DNA of 64,000 bases. Origin: Escherichia phage dw-ec. A model generated the notes under the pieces. The model searched no databases, was not told where the DNA came from, and saw nothing but the letters and a program-made list of their open reading frames with translations. The translations under genes and the position numbers were made by a program. This document shows positions 13,549 to 24,966 of this stretch, in pieces. The stretch's first letter is position 1. Each line of letters begins with the position of its first letter. The stretch lies in sequence record OL739525.1; one strand, written 5' to 3'.

Positions 13549-14274
13549 TTACTTGTTAATAATACCTGCAATATTAGGTTTGACAAAGGTCGATGGTTTC
13601 ATGATCTTACCTTTATCATCAAAGAACACATACACTTTCTGTTTTTCATTATAAACAGCATGAACACCAGTGTATGCCCCTTCTGGACGATTGGCATTTC
13701 GTTCTTCAATTGCAGCGCATTCTTGTGCAATGGCTGAATCGATATCCGAAGTTTTCCAAGTTTTCAGCAACTGTTGTTTAGTTGGATACTTGGAATCATT
13801 ACTTTTCAATACCTCTTTAATAACTTTCTTTTCTGGATATTTTGAACGGATTAGAGTGTCACGAGACATACGCATAATACCAGCAGCCATTAGTGCCATT
13901 TGAACTGGCTCTGTAAATGTTTGTTCCAAAGCATCAAAATCAGTATACACAGTTGGAGTAAAAACATCGCCTACAGCATAGTCCAAGAAATTCATCGTAT
14001 GTTCTTCACCAAAGAACATGTAAGTCAGATAACTGGATACTACAAAAATATCTGCTGCTGCATCCAAGAGTTCTACATGATCGTTTACTTTCGCGGCTGT
14101 TTCATACTCTTTAAGCTCTTCACGAACGAACCCGATTTGGGACATAAATAGCTCTTGAGTGAATTCAGGTTGTTCACCACCTCGTGCTTTGGCATTCCAA
14201 TCAATCACGTGCTTTGCTGCATTTTTGAAAAATTCAGTATCGAATTTAATATCTTTAAAAAAATTCTCGATCAT
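13549..14274 (-). CDS. MazG-like NTP pyrophosphohydrolase (all-alpha)
   Basis: REELKEYETAAKVNDHVELLDAAADIF EExxE...D motif pattern; 241 aa. Confidence 0.45.
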   Translation of the reverse strand: MIENFFKDIKFDTEFFKNAAKHVIDWNAKARGGEQPEFTQELFMSQIGFVREELKEYETAAKVNDHVELLDAAADIFVVSSYLTYMFFGEEHTMNFLDYAVGDVFTPTVYTDFDALEQTFTEPVQMALMAAGIMRMSRDTLIRSKYPEKKVIKEVLKSNDSKYPTKQQLLKTWKTSDIDSAIAQECAAIEERNANRPEGAYTGVHAVYNEKQKVYVFFDDKGKIMKPSTFVKPNIAGIINK

Positions 14275-14283
14275 TATAACTCC

Positions 14284-14466
14284 TTATTTAAAATAGCTTT
14301 CTAGAAAGTTGCTAATATTTACTACAGTCTCACCCATGTAAATTCCTGCGAAACCGAAAACAAGCATACGTGGAATATTGAAATACCATTTATCCGCCGG
14401 AAAAGATGCCAGAATTACAATAGCAATTGCTATCAACATCATAAGAATTGTTGCTAAAATTATCAT
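14284..14466 (-). CDS. small membrane protein (about 60 aa)
   Basis: Track ORF trimmed to the Met after a GGAGG RBS; hydrophobic segments. Confidence 0.4.
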   Translation of the reverse strand: MIILATILMMLIAIAIVILASFPADKWYFNIPRMLVFGFAGIYMGETVVNISNFLESYFK

Positions 14467-14657
14467 AAAAATGCCTCCAGGTATTTTGCACAATGGTAAG
14501 CTAAGAAACAAGAAACTACCGCATACCCAACTCCAGACATACATGAATCAATCGCAATACATACGGTTCTTTTCTTTGAATTCTTAGGAAAGCTTTCCGA
14601 AGCATTCATACAATAAAAAGAAAGCACACTGAAAACGATTAAAATGGCTAAGAACAT
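14463..14657 (-). CDS. small membrane protein (64 aa)
   Basis: ORF track; N-terminal hydrophobic helix MFLAILIVFSVLSFY. Confidence 0.4.
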   Translation of the reverse strand: MFLAILIVFSVLSFYCMNASESFPKNSKKRTVCIAIDSCMSGVGYAVVSCFLAYHCAKYLEAFL

Positions 14658-14666
14658 TTTTCCTCC

Positions 14667-15794
14667 TTATTCTGCTGGTTCCCAAGTGCCTGGGATCATT
14701 TCTCGAATACGAACACCAACAGGTTTTGTTGGAATACCTTCATCTGAAAATTCTTCATACTCTATTTCAACGAACTGATTAATCAAGGTAGAAGCATTCT
14801 CTGCTTTACGATAATTGATAGTCTCATGAGCATCTTTACGCATTAAGAATTCGACTACTTTACCATTTTCCATCTCACCTGTCAACACTCCATCACCATT
14901 TTTATCACTTTTTGAATTTGTTACTTTAACTTCAAGGGTGTGGCGAGGCTTACGTTTAATAACGTCATAAGAACGTTTATCAAATTCGTAAACTCCGTGA
15001 GCATTACGATATACTACACCTTCAGCTTTCTCAAGTAAAGCTTTTTCATAGAAAGCATCAAACTGTTCTTGGTTTTCAATATACTCTGTATGAACTACAC
15101 AAATAAGCTCGTCAAGACCATAATCTTCAACTACTGCCTTAAGAGCAGTAAGAACATCAACACGTTTTTCAAACGGTAGATCTGGAACTGGAATATCGTA
15201 TACGTAATAATTCAGCAAAGGTGTATTTGCATTATGCTTCTTCCAGGCACTGTTAATTTGTTGCAGACTAAGGACACCTAACCCAGCAAACACTTCACCA
15301 TCAAGAGGATGACCAACAACTTCACTAATAAAGTTTGGAATACCTTTCCAATGAGGTGGCAGGTTATACACTTCCCCAGCTTTTGATAAACACTCCCCTT
15401 TCATGTTAATCATAGAACGTAACCCGTTCAGTTTGTATTGTGCATAACCAGGGAACACAACCCTTTCAGGATAATCTTTATAATCCTGGCATTTCATTGG
15501 TGTAGAAGGAACATGGTTTTCAGCTTCTTCTTTTGTTTTATAATAGCCATTCTTTAACTGTTTTGTCCATTTGGCAAAAGCTTCAAGTTCAGCTTGTTCT
15601 TCTGGTGTTGTTTCATTGGAACGACCGATGTTTTTTGCTTCTGCTGTATAAGATTTTTCTGTGATTTTTCCACCTACCCTTCCATGAGCTACAGTAACAA
15701 CTGCACCATCTGTATACACTGTCCACTGTTTAAGTTTTCCTTTTGAATCTTTACCATACAGCGTTTGATTTGTTTGTTGCATTAGTCCTCCCAT
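14667..15794 (-). CDS. ATP-dependent DNA ligase
   Basis: KLNGLR adenylation motif (KxNG) with nucleotidyltransferase and OB-like C-terminal region; 375 aa. Confidence 0.8.
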   Translation of the reverse strand: MGGLMQQTNQTLYGKDSKGKLKQWTVYTDGAVVTVAHGRVGGKITEKSYTAEAKNIGRSNETTPEEQAELEAFAKWTKQLKNGYYKTKEEAENHVPSTPMKCQDYKDYPERVVFPGYAQYKLNGLRSMINMKGECLSKAGEVYNLPPHWKGIPNFISEVVGHPLDGEVFAGLGVLSLQQINSAWKKHNANTPLLNYYVYDIPVPDLPFEKRVDVLTALKAVVEDYGLDELICVVHTEYIENQEQFDAFYEKALLEKAEGVVYRNAHGVYEFDKRSYDVIKRKPRHTLEVKVTNSKSDKNGDGVLTGEMENGKVVEFLMRKDAHETINYRKAENASTLINQFVEIEYEEFSDEGIPTKPVGVRIREMIPGTWEPAE

Positions 15795-16003
15795 TTAAAA
15801 ACTGAAATTTTCAATCTGTTACACACTTCATCCAAATCTGCGTCGAGTAACGTTGTGGATGTTGCCAACATATAATCAATGCTTGTGAAACCTTGCCCTT
15901 TGGCATAGTCAAGCATATCTTCATACATATCTTCAAGATCACCGTCATCAAAAGTAGCTAGAAAATCCTCGTCCCCGCTACGAACATAAAATGCAGTACT
16001 CAT
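15782..16003 (-). CDS. hypothetical acidic protein (73 aa)
   Basis: ORF track. Confidence 0.45.
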   Translation of the reverse strand: MSTAFYVRSGDEDFLATFDDGDLEDMYEDMLDYAKGQGFTSIDYMLATSTTLLDADLDEVCNRLKISVFKWED

Positions 16004-16191
16004 TCATCTTCATCCCAAGATTCAAAAACGCAGCAATCATCGGTTTCTATAATACCAACACGTCCGCAGGTATTGCAAGTGATTTTATCACCGTAGAATA
16101 AATAATTTTTATCACCCTCTGTGTTTACAGTTATGTCATTACTACCACAAGGGCAAGTCAGCCAACCAACAACAACGATATCTTTTTTCAT
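16000..16191 (-). CDS. small zinc-ribbon protein (63 aa)
   Basis: CPCG...CNTCG Cys pairs. Confidence 0.45.
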   Translation of the reverse strand: MKKDIVVVGWLTCPCGSNDITVNTEGDKNYLFYGDKITCNTCGRVGIIETDDCCVFESWDEDE

Positions 16192-16200
16192 AATCCCTCC

Positions 16201-16527
16201 TTAAGCGTTCAGTTCGTTGTTGAGTTCGTAAATCTCTTCTTGAAGAGCATCAATCTCTTCCTCCAAACGGGAGATCTCTTCTTTTAGATATACCGTTTCT
16301 GATTCTTTCTCTTCTAATTCATTTTCAAATTTTACTTTATTCGCCTCATTTTCATAATGCAGTTCAGCGTAATCATCACGCATTTGTTCAATAAGATGAA
16401 TCAGAGATAAGATATAGTTATCCCCAGTTTCATCTCGCCACTCTTCCCCGTGGCGCAAGATTGTGATTCGTCCCGTGTTTTCATCTAAAATTGTCTCATA
16501 TTTACGATCATCTGTATAAATCTGCAT
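16201..16527 (-). CDS. hypothetical coiled-coil acidic protein (108 aa)
   Basis: ORF track; Glu/Leu-rich heptad-like C-terminus. Confidence 0.45.
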   Translation of the reverse strand: MQIYTDDRKYETILDENTGRITILRHGEEWRDETGDNYILSLIHLIEQMRDDYAELHYENEANKVKFENELEEKESETVYLKEEISRLEEEIDALQEEIYELNNELNA

Positions 16528-16536
16528 TATTACTCC

Positions 16537-16941
16537 TTATTGAAGTTTAAGTGAACCACGAAGACGTTTCTCTTGCTGATCACGAATATATTGTGGAACC
16601 TCGTGAATTGAATCATTACCGTGCCTATTTTCAACAACTAAAGAGATAACTTGATAACCAAACTCTTCAGCAAGAGTTAGATAAGGTTTAAGTTCTTTCT
16701 CTGTGGTTGAAGTGTTAGAAACAATAATCTTGTTAAGATTAGATGCCATAGCATCACGAACAATACTCTGACACCATGCGTGTGCTTTACCTACATTTTC
16801 TGGCTTCCAATCGTAAACACCACTTTCTGTATAATGATATTGATCTGCCTCACAGATAGGCCAATAACCTTCAGAAATAATTTCTGCTACCGTAGATTTA
16901 CCAGCACCTGAAACGCCACGTAAAATGATAAGTTGTTTCAT
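16537..16941 (-). CDS. P-loop polynucleotide 5-prime kinase (kinase domain only)
   Basis: GVSGAGKST Walker A near N-terminus; 134 aa; adjacent to RNA ligase. Confidence 0.6.
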   Translation of the reverse strand: MKQLIILRGVSGAGKSTVAEIISEGYWPICEADQYHYTESGVYDWKPENVGKAHAWCQSIVRDAMASNLNKIIVSNTSTTEKELKPYLTLAEEFGYQVISLVVENRHGNDSIHEVPQYIRDQQEKRLRGSLKLQ

Positions 16942-17874
16942 TTATCCTCCAAAGAAGTTTTCGATTTTTTCACGTCGCTCTTGCTGATTTAAAGCAGCCC
17001 ATTGAGTCTTCGTAAAATTATTTCGAATCCATTCTAACAAAGCGTAATATTCTTCGTCAACAATTTGTTTGGCATTTTTTGGATTATCCCAAATCAGATC
17101 CCACTTTTTATCTCCACCACGCATAAGAAACTTCTTAGTAAGATAGTGTGGTGATTTAATTTTTAAAAGTAAGTTGAACGGATAGTTTGTTTCACGAACT
17201 ACAAACCCTTCGTGTTTACAATGTTTAGACATTTCAACAACATCTGAAAACTTAACCATTGGATGAACTTCAGGACGCTTAAATTTGGTGACAGAAGCAA
17301 TTCCATCAAGAGCACCTTCAGGTAACATAAAACTTGTCCCATCAGGATTTTGAATTCTGGCACCAATTAAGTATGCACCTGGTTCTTCTTCGACAATATG
17401 TGGATCAGAAGGATCACAGATTTCAAACAGGAAAGTTGCTTTTGCACTCTCTGCCCATTTGATGAAATGTTCTATGTCATCGCACTCTGAAACAATATGA
17501 TTCTTTGCAATACTTGCAAAATCTGATTCAAGGCTTCCTGTTGTCGATACAATAAGTTGACCTTTATATACACCTACAGAGGCCATAAAACCATTTACTT
17601 TACGAACCACATCTACAAGTTCATCCGCTGGTAGATCTGTGCCATTCTCAAAACGATTAAAAATCTTAGTGAAAGGCCAAATAACAACATTGTCATCAGC
17701 ATCAACAACGATTCCGCGACATTCTAGAAGACGAGAATCAATGCTCCATAAATTATCCCAGAAAACTTTGTTCTTATACTTAAGAACAGATAGACCAGAA
17801 TACTCTCCTTCTTTATATGTTTTCTTATGAACTAAACCTTTTTCAACCAAATCGTCGCAATTAAATTTAGTCAC
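16942..17874 (-). CDS. RNA ligase (Rnl family nucleotidyltransferase)
   Basis: VVRKVNGFMASVGVY contains the KxNG lysine-adenylate motif; 310 aa. Confidence 0.65.
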   Translation of the reverse strand: MTKFNCDDLVEKGLVHKKTYKEGEYSGLSVLKYKNKVFWDNLWSIDSRLLECRGIVVDADDNVVIWPFTKIFNRFENGTDLPADELVDVVRKVNGFMASVGVYKGQLIVSTTGSLESDFASIAKNHIVSECDDIEHFIKWAESAKATFLFEICDPSDPHIVEEEPGAYLIGARIQNPDGTSFMLPEGALDGIASVTKFKRPEVHPMVKFSDVVEMSKHCKHEGFVVRETNYPFNLLLKIKSPHYLTKKFLMRGGDKKWDLIWDNPKNAKQIVDEEYYALLEWIRNNFTKTQWAALNQQERREKIENFFGG

Positions 17875-17875
17875 A

Positions 17876-18427
17876 TTACTCTCCTTTGATTATTTTGTGA
17901 TGGTCTACAGTCACGATATCTCGTTTACTCATCATAGAAATTATCTCATCAAAATGCAAGATTTTTCCGTGTGCATCCCAACCCACATCTAACATTTTAC
18001 CATAAGCTTCATCAGGGAAAGATCCGTGGGAATGCCCGTGTAGCATGATTGATCCACGACCTTGTTTATTCCAGGAGGCAATAGGGTAATGACTTAAGAC
18101 GAAGAACAGCTTCTGGTATTTCACTTCGTCATAATACACCACTTCGCCATACTCTGCAAGCACTTCTCGGTGCTTGCTGTAATCATGATTCCCAACAAGA
18201 TAAGTGATATCCCCTTGCAGACGGGAAGCAATCTTACGGGTATCTTCTTCAGTCCCGAAACAGAAGTCGCCCAAATGCCACATCTTAACACCAGGGGTAG
18301 TAGCACATTTGTTCCATGCTTCGATCAAGGCTTCTGTCATGTGGTCCATATCTTCCCACGGACGATATTCAGGAGCAAACTCTCGAATGCGTTTATGCAT
18401 AAAATGCAAATCGCTTGTAATAAACAT
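17876..18427 (-). CDS. calcineurin-like metallophosphoesterase
   Basis: SDLHFMH, LGDFCFG, GNHDY, HGHSHG metallophosphatase motifs; 183 aa. Confidence 0.7.
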   Translation of the reverse strand: MFITSDLHFMHKRIREFAPEYRPWEDMDHMTEALIEAWNKCATTPGVKMWHLGDFCFGTEEDTRKIASRLQGDITYLVGNHDYSKHREVLAEYGEVVYYDEVKYQKLFFVLSHYPIASWNKQGRGSIMLHGHSHGSFPDEAYGKMLDVGWDAHGKILHFDEIISMMSKRDIVTVDHHKIIKGE

Positions 18428-18783
18428 TAGTATAATCCCTCGCTAAATAATTCATGGTCGTGACCATTACGCTCATGGTCGATCTGGTCAGCATTTTCCG
18501 CGATGATGTAAGCATCCGCACGACTCCACCAATTGTAATACTGATCGATAAAGCCTTGATTATCTGGTGTGCACAAAGTTTTGTTGATTACACCTGCTTC
18601 TTTCAACACGTTTAACTGTGCATATAGTACAGGATTTGCATGTCGAACACAAGGAATAATTAACTCTTCGCCATTATTCAAAATATACTTATTTGCAGCA
18701 CAGACAATAACACGTTGCGCATAATGACCCTCACCCATCCAGGTAAGAGGTTGGTAACAAATGTTGTTTTCAATACCACTCAT
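18427..18783 (-). CDS. hypothetical protein (118 aa)
   Basis: ORF track; start coupled to downstream metallophosphatase gene. Confidence 0.5.
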   Translation of the reverse strand: MSGIENNICYQPLTWMGEGHYAQRVIVCAANKYILNNGEELIIPCVRHANPVLYAQLNVLKEAGVINKTLCTPDNQGFIDQYYNWWSRADAYIIAENADQIDHERNGHDHELFSEGLY

Positions 18784-18789
18784 TGTTTC

Positions 18790-18933
18790 CTAATCCTCCT
18801 CTCTTAAATTATCCTCGAAAAAACTAGTATCTGGAAGTAAAAGATCATTGCTTGTGTCGGGCGAATCCTCTTCTTCTCTGTAGATAAAGTAACCTTCGTC
18901 CTCTTCTTGTTCCGACCAAACCGAATGATGCAT
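18790..18933 (-). CDS. small acidic hypothetical protein (about 47 aa, not in ORF track)
   Basis: ATG after AGGAGA RBS; fills the 18784-18942 gap. Confidence 0.3.
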   Translation of the reverse strand: MHHSVWSEQEEDEGYFIYREEEDSPDTSNDLLLPDTSFFEDNLREED

Positions 18934-18942
18934 GTTCTCTCC

Positions 18943-19299
18943 TTAGTAGTGCACACGAATCATTTTAATACCATAACGCTGCATGGATTCTTTTGCAAGC
19001 ATGAATTTATCCCCAGCGGCGGGATTAGAAGTATGCACGAAAATGGTAGGTGAACCAAAGCAAGGTTTACCAAACGCCAGAAGTTCTTCCAGGTGCAGGA
19101 AAACATCATACCCATCTTGGTCTGACTCCATACCTAAATCGTTGTCAAAATGCCACTCGTCTACAAAACGATAACCCTTCTGCACCTCATTCATGTAACG
19201 AGAGGCAAGAAGTTCCTGTGAGGTTTTAAACCAGATTGCATCTGGACAACCATAATCTTTTGGATCACGTAAATCATCAAGCCAAATAATAGTACCCAT
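18943..19299 (-). CDS. hypothetical protein with receiver-domain-like signature
   Basis: IIWLDD ... FDNDLG ... VHTSN ... AGDK spacing resembles CheY-like DD/D/T/K landmarks; 118 aa. Confidence 0.4.
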   Translation of the reverse strand: MGTIIWLDDLRDPKDYGCPDAIWFKTSQELLASRYMNEVQKGYRFVDEWHFDNDLGMESDQDGYDVFLHLEELLAFGKPCFGSPTIFVHTSNPAAGDKFMLAKESMQRYGIKMIRVHY

Positions 19300-23042: not shown

Positions 23043-23117
23043 GGCCCTGTAGCTCAATGGGAGAGCTGTCGGCTCATAACCGATAGGTAGCTGGATCGAA
23101 ACCAGCCAGGGCCACCA
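23043..23117 (+). tRNA. tRNA with CAT anticodon (Met or lysidine-type Ile2)
   Basis: Cloverleaf folds by hand: GGCCCTG/CAGGGCC acceptor, anticodon loop CTCATAA, CCA encoded. Confidence 0.75.
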
Positions 23118-23119
23118 AC

Positions 23120-23194
23120 GTCTTTATGGTGTAATGGATAGCACAGGAGTCTTCTAAACTCTTAGTCAAGGTTCGATTCCTTGTAAAGACACCA
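23120..23194 (+). tRNA. tRNA-Arg (TCT)
   Basis: 7-bp acceptor, anticodon loop CTTCTAA, T-arm CAAGG-TTCGATT-CCTTG, CCA encoded. Confidence 0.8.
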
Positions 23195-23390
23195 GAACAT
23201 TTTAACATGAATTAGCTCAAGTGATTTGAACCCACTACTGATCATGGTGGCAGAGAATGAGGCAAGTATGTCAGACATTATAAACAAAGGCCACGGTTAT
23301 ATTAGAAGACATAAATGCTCGAAGAGCACCGTTCGTTGAGAACGGGGGTTGGTGGAGTCACCATTCATGGTAAAATGTTTTAAAAAACTA

Positions 23391-23420
23391 TTGACAACTA
23401 ACATTATTTTATGTTAGATT
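23391..23420 (+). promoter_or_regulatory. sigma70-like promoter P2 inside tRNA array (CTATTGACAA ... TGtTAGATT)
   Basis: TTGACA, 18-bp spacer, extended -10; CTAACAT/ATGTTAG inverted repeat. Confidence 0.5.
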
Positions 23421-23428
23421 ATAAGTAT

Positions 23429-23519
23429 GGAAGGGCAAATCGATGTGGCGACGAAAACGGTCTTGAAAACCGCCGAGCTTGAAAGAGCCTTGGGAGTTCG
23501 ACTCTCCCTCCTTCCGCCA
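23429..23519 (+). tRNA. tRNA-Ser (TGA), class II
   Basis: Anticodon loop CTTGAAA, long variable arm, T-arm GGGAG-TTCGACT-CTCCC, CCA encoded. Confidence 0.8.
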
Positions 23520-23524
23520 GATTA

Positions 23525-23610
23525 GGTAGATTGGTGAAATGGTAGCCACAACAGTTTGCTAAACTGTAGTCGGAAACGGCGTGTAGGTTCGAGTCCTACA
23601 TCTACCGCCA
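23525..23610 (+). tRNA. tRNA-Ser (GCT), class II
   Basis: GGTAGAT/ATCTACC acceptor, anticodon loop TTGCTAA, long variable arm, CCA encoded. Confidence 0.8.
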
Positions 23611-23740
23611 AGTTCTTTTTAATATAGCTTACTTTAATAGAGTAAACTTTCGGCAGATGGCCTCCACCATCTTACCGATAACTCATAGTTAGTGGTGTGA
23701 ACACTGGCTATTTTAAAAAGAATTTAAATATTAGTATTTA

Positions 23741-23828
23741 GGTGAGTTAATTCCGTAGGGGTAGCGGGGCAGACTGTAAATCTGTTATCATTGCGATTCG
23801 GGTGGTTCGACTCCATCACTCACCACCA
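23741..23828 (+). tRNA. tRNA-Tyr (GTA), class II
   Basis: GGTGAGT/ACTCACC acceptor, anticodon loop CTGTAAA, long variable arm, CCA encoded. Confidence 0.8.
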
Positions 23829-23834
23829 AATTAA

Positions 23835-23920
23835 GATGAGTTGGCTGAATGGTTTAAGCGGCGGACTGTTAATCCGTGTTCGAAAGAACGATATAGGTTC
23901 AAATCCTATACTCATCGCCA
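23835..23920 (+). tRNA. class II tRNA with apparent GTT (Asn-type) anticodon; isotype uncertain
   Basis: Good acceptor and T-arm, 15-nt variable arm, anticodon stem GCGGA/TCCGT with loop CTGTTAA; class II architecture with an Asn anticodon is non-canonical. Confidence 0.55.
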
Positions 23921-23927
23921 GAATTAT

Positions 23928-24004
23928 GGACTTGTAGAGTTAAGGTAAACCCCCAGTCGCCAAGAGGCTTCTGGAATTGCAGGTATCGAATCCTGCCGAG
24001 TCCC
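23928..24004 (+). pseudogene. degenerate tRNA-like element
   Basis: Acceptor pairing GGACTTG/CGAGTCC and T-arm-like GCAGG-TATCGAAT-CCTGC (8-nt loop), but no canonical anticodon arm could be folded. Confidence 0.35.
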
Positions 24005-24010
24005 AGTTTT

Positions 24011-24085
24011 GCTCCTATAGTATAATGGCTATTACAACGGTTTTGTAATCCGTGGATCTCTGTTCGATTCAGAGTGGGAGCACCA
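24011..24085 (+). tRNA. tRNA-Thr (TGT)
   Basis: GCTCCTA/TGGGAGC acceptor, anticodon loop TTTGTAA (one non-WC pair closing the stem), CCA encoded. Confidence 0.7.
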
Positions 24086-24358
24086 ACATAACATTAAGAG
24101 CACTGTGATTGATCGTCGTATCCTGTGCACAAGGTCTGCTCGAAAGACAGTGTTCTTAGTATTGTGTTGATCACACAAAGAGTTACCTGAAACTTGACCG
24201 GAGTAGGGTTGGATGGGGCAAAAGAAGAAGCGGCTCTCCCATCGACAGCAACGAAGAATAATATTTGACTTTGGTTTTGTATTATTTTAAGTTAGCTTAC
24301 CGAACGTAGGGCTAGTCACCCAATGGGATACTCGTCACTGTCCCACTCAATAAAACTA

Positions 24359-24388
24359 TTGACAACCAATAGTAAAATGTAGTATAGT
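24359..24388 (+). promoter_or_regulatory. sigma70-like promoter P3 inside tRNA array (CTATTGACAA-18-TATAGT)
   Basis: Consensus hexamers about 10 nt upstream of tRNA-Gly. Confidence 0.5.
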
Positions 24389-24399
24389 AAAGATGTAGG

Positions 24400-24473
24400 G
24401 CGTTCTTGGTGTAGCGGTAGCATTCCGTCCTTCCAAGTCGGCGGCACGAGTTCGATCCTCGTAGAACGCTCCA
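24400..24473 (+). tRNA. tRNA-Gly (TCC)
   Basis: Anticodon loop CTTCCAA, T-arm ACGAG-TTCGATC-CTCGT, CCA encoded. Confidence 0.75.
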
Positions 24474-24571
24474 AATTATTTAATAAAGGGTTGCCAGAAA
24501 ACTTTCTCTTTTACTCATGGTTTTCTCCTTCTCTCACACCTCTTCTGGTTGCCCTTCATTAAATGATTTAT

Positions 24572-24647
24572 TGGTTTGTAGTGTAGTCCGGTAGCACACG
24601 ACACTTTGACTGTCGTAGGTTTGGTTCAAATCCAGACAGACCAGCCA
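24572..24647 (+). tRNA. tRNA-Gln (TTG)
   Basis: TGGTTTG/CAGACCA acceptor, anticodon stem CGACA/TGTCG with loop CTTTGAC, CCA encoded. Confidence 0.75.
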
Positions 24648-24652
24648 TATAA

Positions 24653-24729
24653 CGGAATTTAGCTCAGTTTGGTAGAGCATACGCTTTGGGAGCGTAGGGT
24701 CGCAGGTTCGAATCCTGCAATTCCGACCA
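24653..24729 (+). tRNA. tRNA-Pro (TGG)
   Basis: CGGAATT/AATTCCG acceptor, anticodon loop TTTGGGA, T-arm GCAGG-TTCGAAT-CCTGC, CCA encoded. Confidence 0.85.
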
Positions 24730-24735
24730 ATCAAA

Positions 24736-24809
24736 TGTTTCGTAGTTCAATGGTAGAACCCACGACTGATAATCGTGAGACACAAGTTCGATTCTTGTCG
24801 AAACAACCA
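24736..24809 (+). tRNA. tRNA-Ile (GAT)
   Basis: TGTTTCG/CGAAACA acceptor, anticodon stem CACGA/TCGTG with loop CTGATAA, CCA encoded. Confidence 0.8.
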
Positions 24810-24811
24810 GT

Positions 24812-24881
24812 TTCCCGTTAGACTTACAGGATAAGAGTTCCACAACTTATTGTGATGCTGGTTCGAATCCAGCACGGGATA
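24812..24881 (+). pseudogene. tRNA-like element with aberrant anticodon arm
   Basis: Canonical T-arm GCTGG-TTCGAAT-CCAGC and acceptor (1-72 mismatch), but anticodon region folds only as a 4-bp stem with 6-nt loop ACTTAT; 70 nt, no CCA. Confidence 0.4.
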
Positions 24882-24887
24882 CATAAT

Positions 24888-24966
24888 AGCGGGATAGAGG
24901 AGTCTGGTCGTCCTCGCCAGTTTCATATGCTGGAGATCATCGGTTCAAATCCGATTCCCGCCTCCA
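24888..24966 (+). tRNA. tRNA-Met (CAT), second CAT-anticodon tRNA
   Basis: Anticodon stem CCAGT/GCTGG with loop TTCATAT, T-arm ATCGG-TTCAAAT-CCGAT, CCA encoded; A1-C72 mismatch at top of acceptor. Confidence 0.65.

Follow-up and report, generated by a model that had tools for sequence, protein, structure and literature searches.

Gene content of the locus

The window analyzed here is a 64,000-nucleotide (nt) stretch of Escherichia phage dw-ec (record OL739525.1), and our subject is a cassette on its minus strand in which genes for a small polynucleotide kinase, an RNA ligase, and a metallophosphoesterase follow one another directly, with a gene for a cREC (cyclic-phosphate processing receiver domain) protein just upstream (Table 1). 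A first-pass annotation, made from the letters of the window, had pointed out these four open reading frames (ORFs), with coordinates and strand that match ours exactly; it overlooked the inserted T4_Y16D-family gene, the family name of the receiver-like protein, and the existing annotations and literature. The genes are tightly packed: their junctions measure −1, +1, 0, +6, +9, and +10 nt (0 nt between kinase and ligase, 1 nt between ligase and phosphoesterase), and a GGAG-type ribosome-binding site lies 5 to 9 nt upstream of every cassette gene. The sole strong intrinsic terminator on the minus strand is at 12580-12557, and the cassette therefore appears to be part of one long leftward block, together with the DNA ligase gene, the MazG-like gene, and RdgC. 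A promoter scan was uninformative (38 sites, versus 33 expected), and the other larger minus-strand ORFs upstream that Pfam recognizes are only RdgC, an exonuclease, NT5C, ThyX, and RNR.

The region is 99.7% identical to that of Escherichia phage BI-EHEC and 95 to 99% identical to those of about 50 other Phapecoctavirus genomes (phAPEC8-like, Stephanstirmvirinae). Records labeled as Campylobacter phages (e.g., A150 and C14) and as Acinetobacter phage vB_AbaM_ABPW7 are 87 to 97% identical to these coliphage genes, and these host labels look doubtful.

Table 1. Features of the cassette and its surroundings (window coordinates unless an IMG/VR locus is named)
Feature	Coordinates	Strand	Size and description
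P-loop polynucleotide kinase	16537..16941	−	134 aa; predicted minimal stand-alone 5'-OH kinase
Rnl1-type ATP-dependent RNA ligase	16942..17874	−	310 aa; GTG start
Binuclear metallophosphoesterase	17876..18427	−	183 aa; predicted 2',3'-cyclic/3'-phosphate end-healing enzyme
T4_Y16D-family protein (PF26092)	18427..18783	−	118 aa; between the phosphoesterase and cREC genes
Small acidic ORF	18790..18933	−	47 aa; isoelectric point 4.05; between the Y16D and cREC genes
cREC protein (PF20274)	18943..19299	−	118 aa; cyclic-phosphate processing receiver domain
MazG-like nucleotide pyrophosphohydrolase	13549..14274	−	PF01503, E = 3e-6; phrog_671, E = 8e-29
ATP-dependent DNA ligase	14667..15794	−	PF01068, E = 1e-9; phrog_114, E = 3e-74
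Acidic coiled-coil protein	16201..16527	−	108 aa; directly downstream of the kinase; phrog_18076 "hol-like chemotaxis," E = 4e-52; 39% conserved in phi92-like phages
tRNA array	23043..24966	+	Divergent to the cassette; 10 ARAGORN tRNAs plus 1 Rfam-only Tyr-like tRNA
Tyr-like tRNA of the array	23741..23825	+	Missed by ARAGORN; Rfam, 39 bits; class-II body; anticodon loop CUGUAAA (Tyr, GUA); no encoded CCA
"tRNA-Asn(GUU)" of the array	23835..23920	+	86 nt; long variable arm with 4-bp stem; G73 discriminator
Kinase-ligase fusion (IMG/VR)	L069:5536-6834; also L064, L070-L074, L077, L080, L081, L086	+ (L069)	432 aa; one polypeptide

Family assignments of the cassette proteins

Profile searches against Pfam, PHROG, and the PDB bear out the enzyme assignments made in the first-pass annotation, and they place each protein more precisely.

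(i) The RNA ligase matches PF09511 (RNA_lig_T4_1) over the whole of the profile (positions 1 to 227 of 227; E = 4e-15; 56.6 bits, against a gathering score of 28.3) and phrog_562 (E = 2e-70). Its motifs I (K92VNG95, the KxNG adenylation motif already noticed at first pass), III (F150-E151), IV (E222-G223), and V (K238-I-K240) align to the KEDG, FE, EG, and KIK of T4 Rnl1, and the motif residues are invariant across 11 phage genera. When the PDB is searched with the family profile, the T4 Rnl1 structure 2c5u is retrieved at E = 3e-23 and Rnl3-type ligases are matched weakly; there is no match to the Pnkp ligase domain or to the Rnl from the Pnkp1-Rnl-Hen1 complex. The hhalign match to T4 Rnl1 (98.6% probability) covers T4 residues 34 to 248 only, and both the hhalign and the hmmsearch alignments end at T4 residue 248 to 251, such that the last ~64 amino acids (aa) of the ligase are unaligned. 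Because its score against the RnlA equivalog TIGR02308 (24.7 bits) is far under the cutoff of 242, the protein is, by these sequence comparisons, an Rnl1-clade enzyme of a distinct clade and not an RnlA orthologue. The label "tail fiber attachment catalyst" that is common on such ligases is an annotation transferred from T4 gp63. The clade is essentially confined to phages, with members in at least 682 phage records and at least 4,976 protein clusters, plus 3 contigs of metagenome-assembled genomes among 185,579 species genomes.

(ii) The kinase matches PF13671 (AAA_33; E = 4e-10) and phrog_2071 (E = 3e-56); the PHROG family named "polynucleotide kinase" is matched more weakly. It has a Walker A motif (G9-x4-G14-K15-S16), a putative general base (Asp33, which aligns with the RDD motif of Pnkp1), and a lid arginine (Arg126). 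In an alignment of 45 relatives, the P-loop residues G12, G14, and K15 and the pair A32-D33 are invariant, and R126 is nearly so. The top PDB match of the family profile is Pnkp1 of the Pnkp1-Rnl-Hen1 complex (8e-7), followed by tRNA-splicing RNA kinases of Mucorales, T4 Pnk, and the kinase domain of the Clostridium thermocellum enzyme (CthPnkp); small-molecule kinases rank below these polynucleotide kinases. The nearest structures are all RNA or polynucleotide 5'-kinases that partner RNA ligases (CthPnkp, T4 Pnk, Pnkp1, and the fungal tRNA-splicing kinase). PADLOC returns nothing for the kinase beyond a match at the P-loop level.

(iii) The phosphoesterase matches phrog_547 (E = 1e-55) and falls below the Pfam cutoff for PF12850 (E = 1e-4; 22.6 bits versus 27). 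All of its signature residues (D6-x-H8, G53-D54, G79-N80-H81, H113, and G131-H132-x-H134) are invariant in 10 genera. Its closest solved relative is Aquifex aq_1665 (1xm7; E = 4e-19 with the family profile), with GpdQ and Rv0805 as weak matches (E = 0.01 to 0.04); a PDB search with the profile at E ≤ 1 brings up no CthPnkp, Pnkp1, or lambda phosphatase. Membership in PdeM, the DNA-ligase-associated phosphoesterase (TIGR04123), was considered and rejected, the match reaching only E = 0.003 and 17 bits against a cutoff of 150.

(iv) The receiver-like protein of the first-pass annotation belongs to a named family, PF20274 (cREC_REC; E = 1.2e-13), and scores well above its cutoff (52 versus 27 bits). 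It keeps the receiver-type residues D8-D9, D52-N53-D54, T90-S91, and K98, which are invariant in six relatives, and the scan of the cassette and its flanking ORFs turned up no histidine kinase. Iyer et al. defined the family, which is predicted to open cyclic phosphates (PMC7824862, PMC9503650). The protein shares 81% identity with that of phage Schickermooser, versus 97 to 100% for the flanking genes, and 47% with that of the phi92-like phage Bas62, versus 84 to 96% for its neighbors; its divergence marks the cREC gene as a local mosaic or a fast-evolving gene. As for the two ORFs that separate it from the phosphoesterase, the T4_Y16D-family gene is probably a passenger and not part of the repair chemistry, and the 47-aa ORF has its own ribosome-binding site and is 80% identical in a phi92-like phage and 98% identical in Schickermooser.

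Conservation of linkage

Two comparisons address the linkage of these genes. In the first, the window proteins were compared by tblastn with eleven annotated phage loci: ligase, kinase, and phosphoesterase lie within ~3 kb of one another, in varying gene order, in nine of the ten other phage genera (Vequintavirus, Pakpunavirus, Seunavirus, Mydovirus, Plateaulakevirus, Thalassavirus, Saclayvirus, Justusliebigvirus, and Otagovirus). The second covers 80 ligase-carrying IMG/VR loci with 6-kb flanks, whose counts are descriptive rather than statistical because the loci share phylogeny and are not independent. A kinase is near the ligase in 74 of the 80 and a phosphoesterase in 67; both are present in 62, mostly less than 1 kb away and on the same strand, and in 51 they are the only partners, with another 12 loci having a kinase without a phosphoesterase. 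The linkage of the triad is no chance association.

In 11 of the 80 IMG/VR loci (Table 1), kinase and ligase form a single polypeptide with the kinase at the N terminus (AAA_33 at residues 16 to 115, RNA_lig_T4_1 at residues 184 to 367), a Rosetta-stone link and an independent sign that the two act together, the kinase in the service of the ligase. A metallophosphoesterase was not found within the 6-kb flanks of these fusion loci. The cREC gene has a narrower distribution: the window, rV5, PVP-SE1, KB57, and Bas62 have it at most ~1 kb from the ligase, and among the compared phage loci it is restricted to Vequintavirinae and Stephanstirmvirinae; it is also present in 10 of the 80 IMG/VR loci.

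Neighboring genes

A DNA ligase gene lies ~750 bp downstream of the kinase gene. Homologues of this DNA ligase were detected in 7 of the 11 compared loci (in fetched flanks of up to ~8 kb), and two further loci have an annotated DNA ligase that the window query did not detect. The MazG-like gene is homologous to ORF85 of rV5 and is a recurrent neighbor of such cassettes; MazG is listed within the rV5/Mydo-type neighborhood (PMC9503650).

Many relatives (L003, L004, L005, L007, L008, L010, and L011) have the cassette beside genes for salvage of nicotinamide adenine dinucleotide (NAD+), namely NAMPT and Prs, and, variously, beside those for Sir2, an HD phosphohydrolase, or NADAR. The presence of such neighbors suggests a composite counter-defense island. 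Near the Phapecoctavirus cassette there are no genes for NAD+ salvage, Sir2, HD phosphohydrolase, or NADAR: tblastn finds no Sir2, NAMPT, or Prs within the window (the Sir2 queries being those of rV5 and PVP-SE1). In the near-identical phage anhysbys, a Sir2 gene is ~28 kb from the cassette, and the Phapecoctavirus Sir2 is 46% identical to that of rV5.

The tRNA array mentioned in the first-pass annotation is present on the opposite strand, with 10 tRNAs called by ARAGORN and one further Rfam match (Table 1). Neither program reports introns or split tRNAs in the array. The "tRNA-Asn(GUU)," whose class-II body resembles those of Ser, Tyr, or Leu tRNAs, is unusual for a tRNA-Asn of the bacterial type and could be a Ser- or Tyr-derived body with an Asn anticodon.

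A proposed RNA repair function

On balance, we lean toward reading the cassette as an RNA heal-and-seal module of the phage, composed of separate small enzymes. From family membership and genomic context, we infer the following activities. The kinase would phosphorylate the 5'-OH end of a broken RNA; the metallophosphoesterase would remove the 2',3'-cyclic phosphate or 3'-phosphate and leave a 3'-OH, with cREC possibly opening the cyclic phosphate ahead of it; and the ligase, adenylylated on Lys92 (a Lys92-AMP intermediate), would seal the healed ends. Host or phage tRNAs are the likely substrates, and the module would then keep translation running once tRNA-cleaving abortive-infection systems fire, complementing the tRNA array of the phage. 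Both the tRNA substrate and the role against anticodon nucleases are suggested because of the neighboring array and the precedent of T4, whose Pnkp and Rnl1 repair tRNA and so reverse the damage done by the PrrC anticodon nuclease.

The observation made at first pass is real, and its biochemical reading is sound, but its novelty is low because the cassette genes are already annotated in GenBank and the hypothesis has been published for sister phages. Schickermooser (MK373788) carries the labels "putative polynucleotide kinase," "putative RNA ligase," and "putative phosphoesterase or phosphohydrolase," and the record of BASEL phage Bas62 carries "polynucleotide kinase," "RNA ligase," and "putative phosphoesterase." A heal-and-seal reading has likewise been published for related neighborhoods (PMC9503650, section 3.7.3; PMC7824862; PMC12846349). 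A full-text literature search found no experiment on the cassette.

Several points weigh against the repair reading. The ligase has no counterpart of the all-helical C-terminal tRNA-specificity domain of T4 Rnl1, so a tRNA substrate is not a given. Three residues past its catalytic Asp, the kinase has a histidine (His36) that is at least 90% conserved in the family; the equivalent residue in T4 Pnk is Arg38, which binds the 3'-phosphate of the acceptor. The structure nearest to the phosphoesterase, aq_1665, is an uncharacterized structural-genomics protein, and cREC is called experimentally uncharacterized by the very authors who named it; the full-text search returned no enzymatic or genetic data for the ligase clade, the phosphoesterase subfamily, or cREC. 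The retron Eco2, whose Toprim protein nicks tRNA acceptor stems, still protects Escherichia coli against the Vequintavirinae and Stephanstirmvirinae phages of the BASEL collection (PMC12916289); therefore, the module, if it repairs tRNA, is not protective against every tRNA-directed defense. The defense systems of the BASEL study did not include those of the PrrC or RloC type. Finally, the DNA ligase is a frequent neighbor of the cassette, such that a role on DNA is still conceivable.

A bolder version of the repair reading, which we advance only tentatively, is that the cassette represents a phage-specific and very widespread RNA repair system that is biochemically distinct from T4 Pnkp/Rnl1. 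It would combine an Rnl1-like ligase with a short C-terminal domain, a minimal kinase, and a COG4186-type metallophosphoesterase, and the substrates that it accepts would differ from those of the T4 system and might extend beyond tRNA-Lys. Vequintavirinae and Stephanstirmvirinae would have added cREC to it, as a 2',3'-cyclic phosphodiesterase of a new class with a receiver fold. If true, such a system would work generally against abortive-infection systems that cleave tRNA or RNA. Defenses that cleave tRNA (PrrC, RloC, PARIS, retrons, OLD, Cas12a3, and others) form a quickly growing list, and, to our knowledge, T4 Pnkp/Rnl1 is the only experimentally established repair answer in phages. At least 682 sequenced phages carry the module, among them therapy-relevant coliphages, Klebsiella phages, and Pseudomonas Pakpunaviruses, and it is also represented by thousands of protein clusters from metagenomes; proof of its function and of the lesions that it repairs would explain part of the host range of these phages and would give the cREC and aq_1665-type families a first assigned activity.

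Alternative explanations

Repair of RNA could also proceed by a yeast-like, NAD+-dependent chemistry. Here, cREC would generate 2'-phosphate/3'-OH ends by opening the 2',3'-cyclic phosphate, the ligase would seal them, and a phage sirtuin, using the ADP-ribosyl transfer known from Tpt1/KptA, would strip the 2'-phosphate from the junction, leaving the metallophosphoesterase to process ADPr>p (ADPr, ADP-ribose) or other by-products. This scheme follows the proposal of Iyer et al. (2022) for rV5/Mydo-type neighborhoods, which combine a sirtuin with a T4-like ligase, cREC, a kinase, and MazG, with or without a calcineurin-like phosphoesterase (PMC9503650). It is consistent with the Sir2 gene lying at most ~1 kb downstream of the ligase in rV5, PVP-SE1, and KB57 (beside the kinase in PVP-SE1), with the frequency of NAMPT and Prs genes as neighbors in relatives, and with the Sir2 that Phapecoctaviruses themselves encode. 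However, the window contains none of these three genes, the Sir2 gene of anhysbys is far from the cassette, and the activities of both the sirtuin and cREC are proposals. Moreover, most triad loci are without cREC (in 51 of the 80, kinase and phosphoesterase are the only partners), and the phosphoesterase, not cREC, is therefore the constant healing partner. We consider this chemistry unlikely, and less well supported than phosphoesterase-based healing.

That the cassette serves housekeeping RNA processing, i.e., that it matures or rejoins phage RNAs such as tRNA transcripts or mends collateral damage by phage nucleases, would fit its position beside a tRNA array with unusual class-II tRNAs, and rV5 and Streptomyces phages likewise have tRNA genes linked to the ligase. 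Yet neither ARAGORN nor Rfam reports introns or split tRNAs, bacterial tRNA maturation requires no ligase that we know of, and the variable accessory genes of related loci (Sir2, NAMPT, Nudix, HD, and NADAR) are typical of conflict islands; on this evidence, a housekeeping role seems quite unlikely.

The proximity of the DNA ligase bears on a further alternative, in which DNA ends bearing a 5'-OH or a 3'-phosphate are made ready by kinase and phosphoesterase for that ligase during replication, recombination, or the repair of restriction damage. The two sets of genes share a block that also includes RdgC and exonuclease genes, DNA ligase homologues recur in the compared loci, the phosphoesterase has a weak similarity to PdeM, and T4 Pnkp is active on DNA too. 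Against this, the gene that kinase and phosphoesterase flank, and that is fused to the kinase in 11 loci, encodes an Rnl1-type RNA ligase; the nearest structural neighbors of the kinase are RNA-repair kinases; and the PdeM score is far below its cutoff. We regard DNA end processing as very unlikely to be the function of the cassette.

Least probable of all is that phosphoesterase and cREC degrade immune signaling nucleotides (cyclic oligonucleotides or those of the cyclic ADP-ribose [cADPR] type) and are mere neighbors of an unrelated ligase-kinase pair: cREC was first tied to NAD+/ADPr-processing contexts and Nudix fusions, and the weakly matched Rv0805 and GpdQ cleave cyclic nucleotides or diesters, but the phosphoesterase gene is 1 nt from that of the ligase and accompanies it at 67 of the 80 IMG/VR loci, and neither PADLOC nor the family evidence ties it to signaling.

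Comparison with known systems

The first-pass annotation had described the cassette as a split version of the bacterial Pnkp. As a functional analogy this stands, in that the cassette has the same three activities at the level of superfamilies and a kinase nearest to those of the Pnkp type; as a statement of family membership it does not, since ligase and phosphoesterase belong to other clades. Membership in bacterial Pnkp was rejected: there are three separate ORFs and not one polypeptide, the phosphoesterase is not lambda-phosphatase-like, and the ligase is not of the Pnkp/Rnl4 type. The Pnkp/Hen1 system of Clostridium thermocellum and the Pnkp1-Rnl-Hen1 system of Capnocytophaga are cellular, whereas the present cassette is phage-borne, and the phosphoesterases of Pnkp and Pnkp1 systems resemble lambda phosphatase, whereas this one resembles aq_1665/COG4186. 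A Pfam scan of the cassette and its flanking ORFs, which make up only part of the minus-strand block, found no Hen1 2'-O-methyltransferase, and the block contains no unassigned ORF as large as Hen1 would be.

The T4 system differs in how the 3' end is healed. T4 Pnkp has a HAD 3'-phosphatase domain, whereas the present kinase stands alone at 134 aa without such a domain; compared with T4 Pnkp plus Rnl1 (gp63), the cassette assigns 3'-end healing to a separate metallophosphoesterase and adds a cREC gene. The fungal and plant enzyme Trl1 (ligase-kinase-cyclic phosphodiesterase), which acts with Tpt1, likewise contains both a ligase of the Rnl1 family and a P-loop RNA kinase, and a stand-alone RNA kinase of Mucorales is among the best matches of the present kinase. 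Trl1 relies on a 2H cyclic phosphodiesterase and needs a 2'-phosphate; in the cassette, by contrast, the candidate for end healing is a metallophosphoesterase, alone or together with cREC, and in the fusions seen in relatives the kinase precedes the ligase.

Among published systems, the nearest is the sirtuin-centered rV5/Mydo-type neighborhood, which has as its common gene set a T4-like tRNA ligase, cREC, a nucleotide kinase, MazG, and a calcineurin-like phosphoesterase (PMC9503650, section 3.7.3). All five genes lie inside positions 13549 to 19299 of the window, and their products are 36 to 54% identical to the rV5 counterparts; unlike in that neighborhood, the sirtuin is unlinked, a T4_Y16D gene is inserted, and the phosphoesterase is always present and adjacent. 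Pakpunaviruses (PAK_P1 and Adele) have orthologues of the ligase (40% identity), kinase (48%), and phosphoesterase (36%) in one block, which has no cREC and contains in addition an HD phosphohydrolase, Prs, and NAMPT. In the 2025 paper on Adele, the kinase, which is without a 3'-phosphatase domain, and RNA ligases were proposed to restore cleaved tRNA, and no link was made between the phosphoesterase and 3'-end healing (PMC12846349). The Pnkp label should be replaced by one that names the parts: an Rnl1-type ligase plus a minimal Pnk, an aq_1665-type metallophosphoesterase, and cREC.

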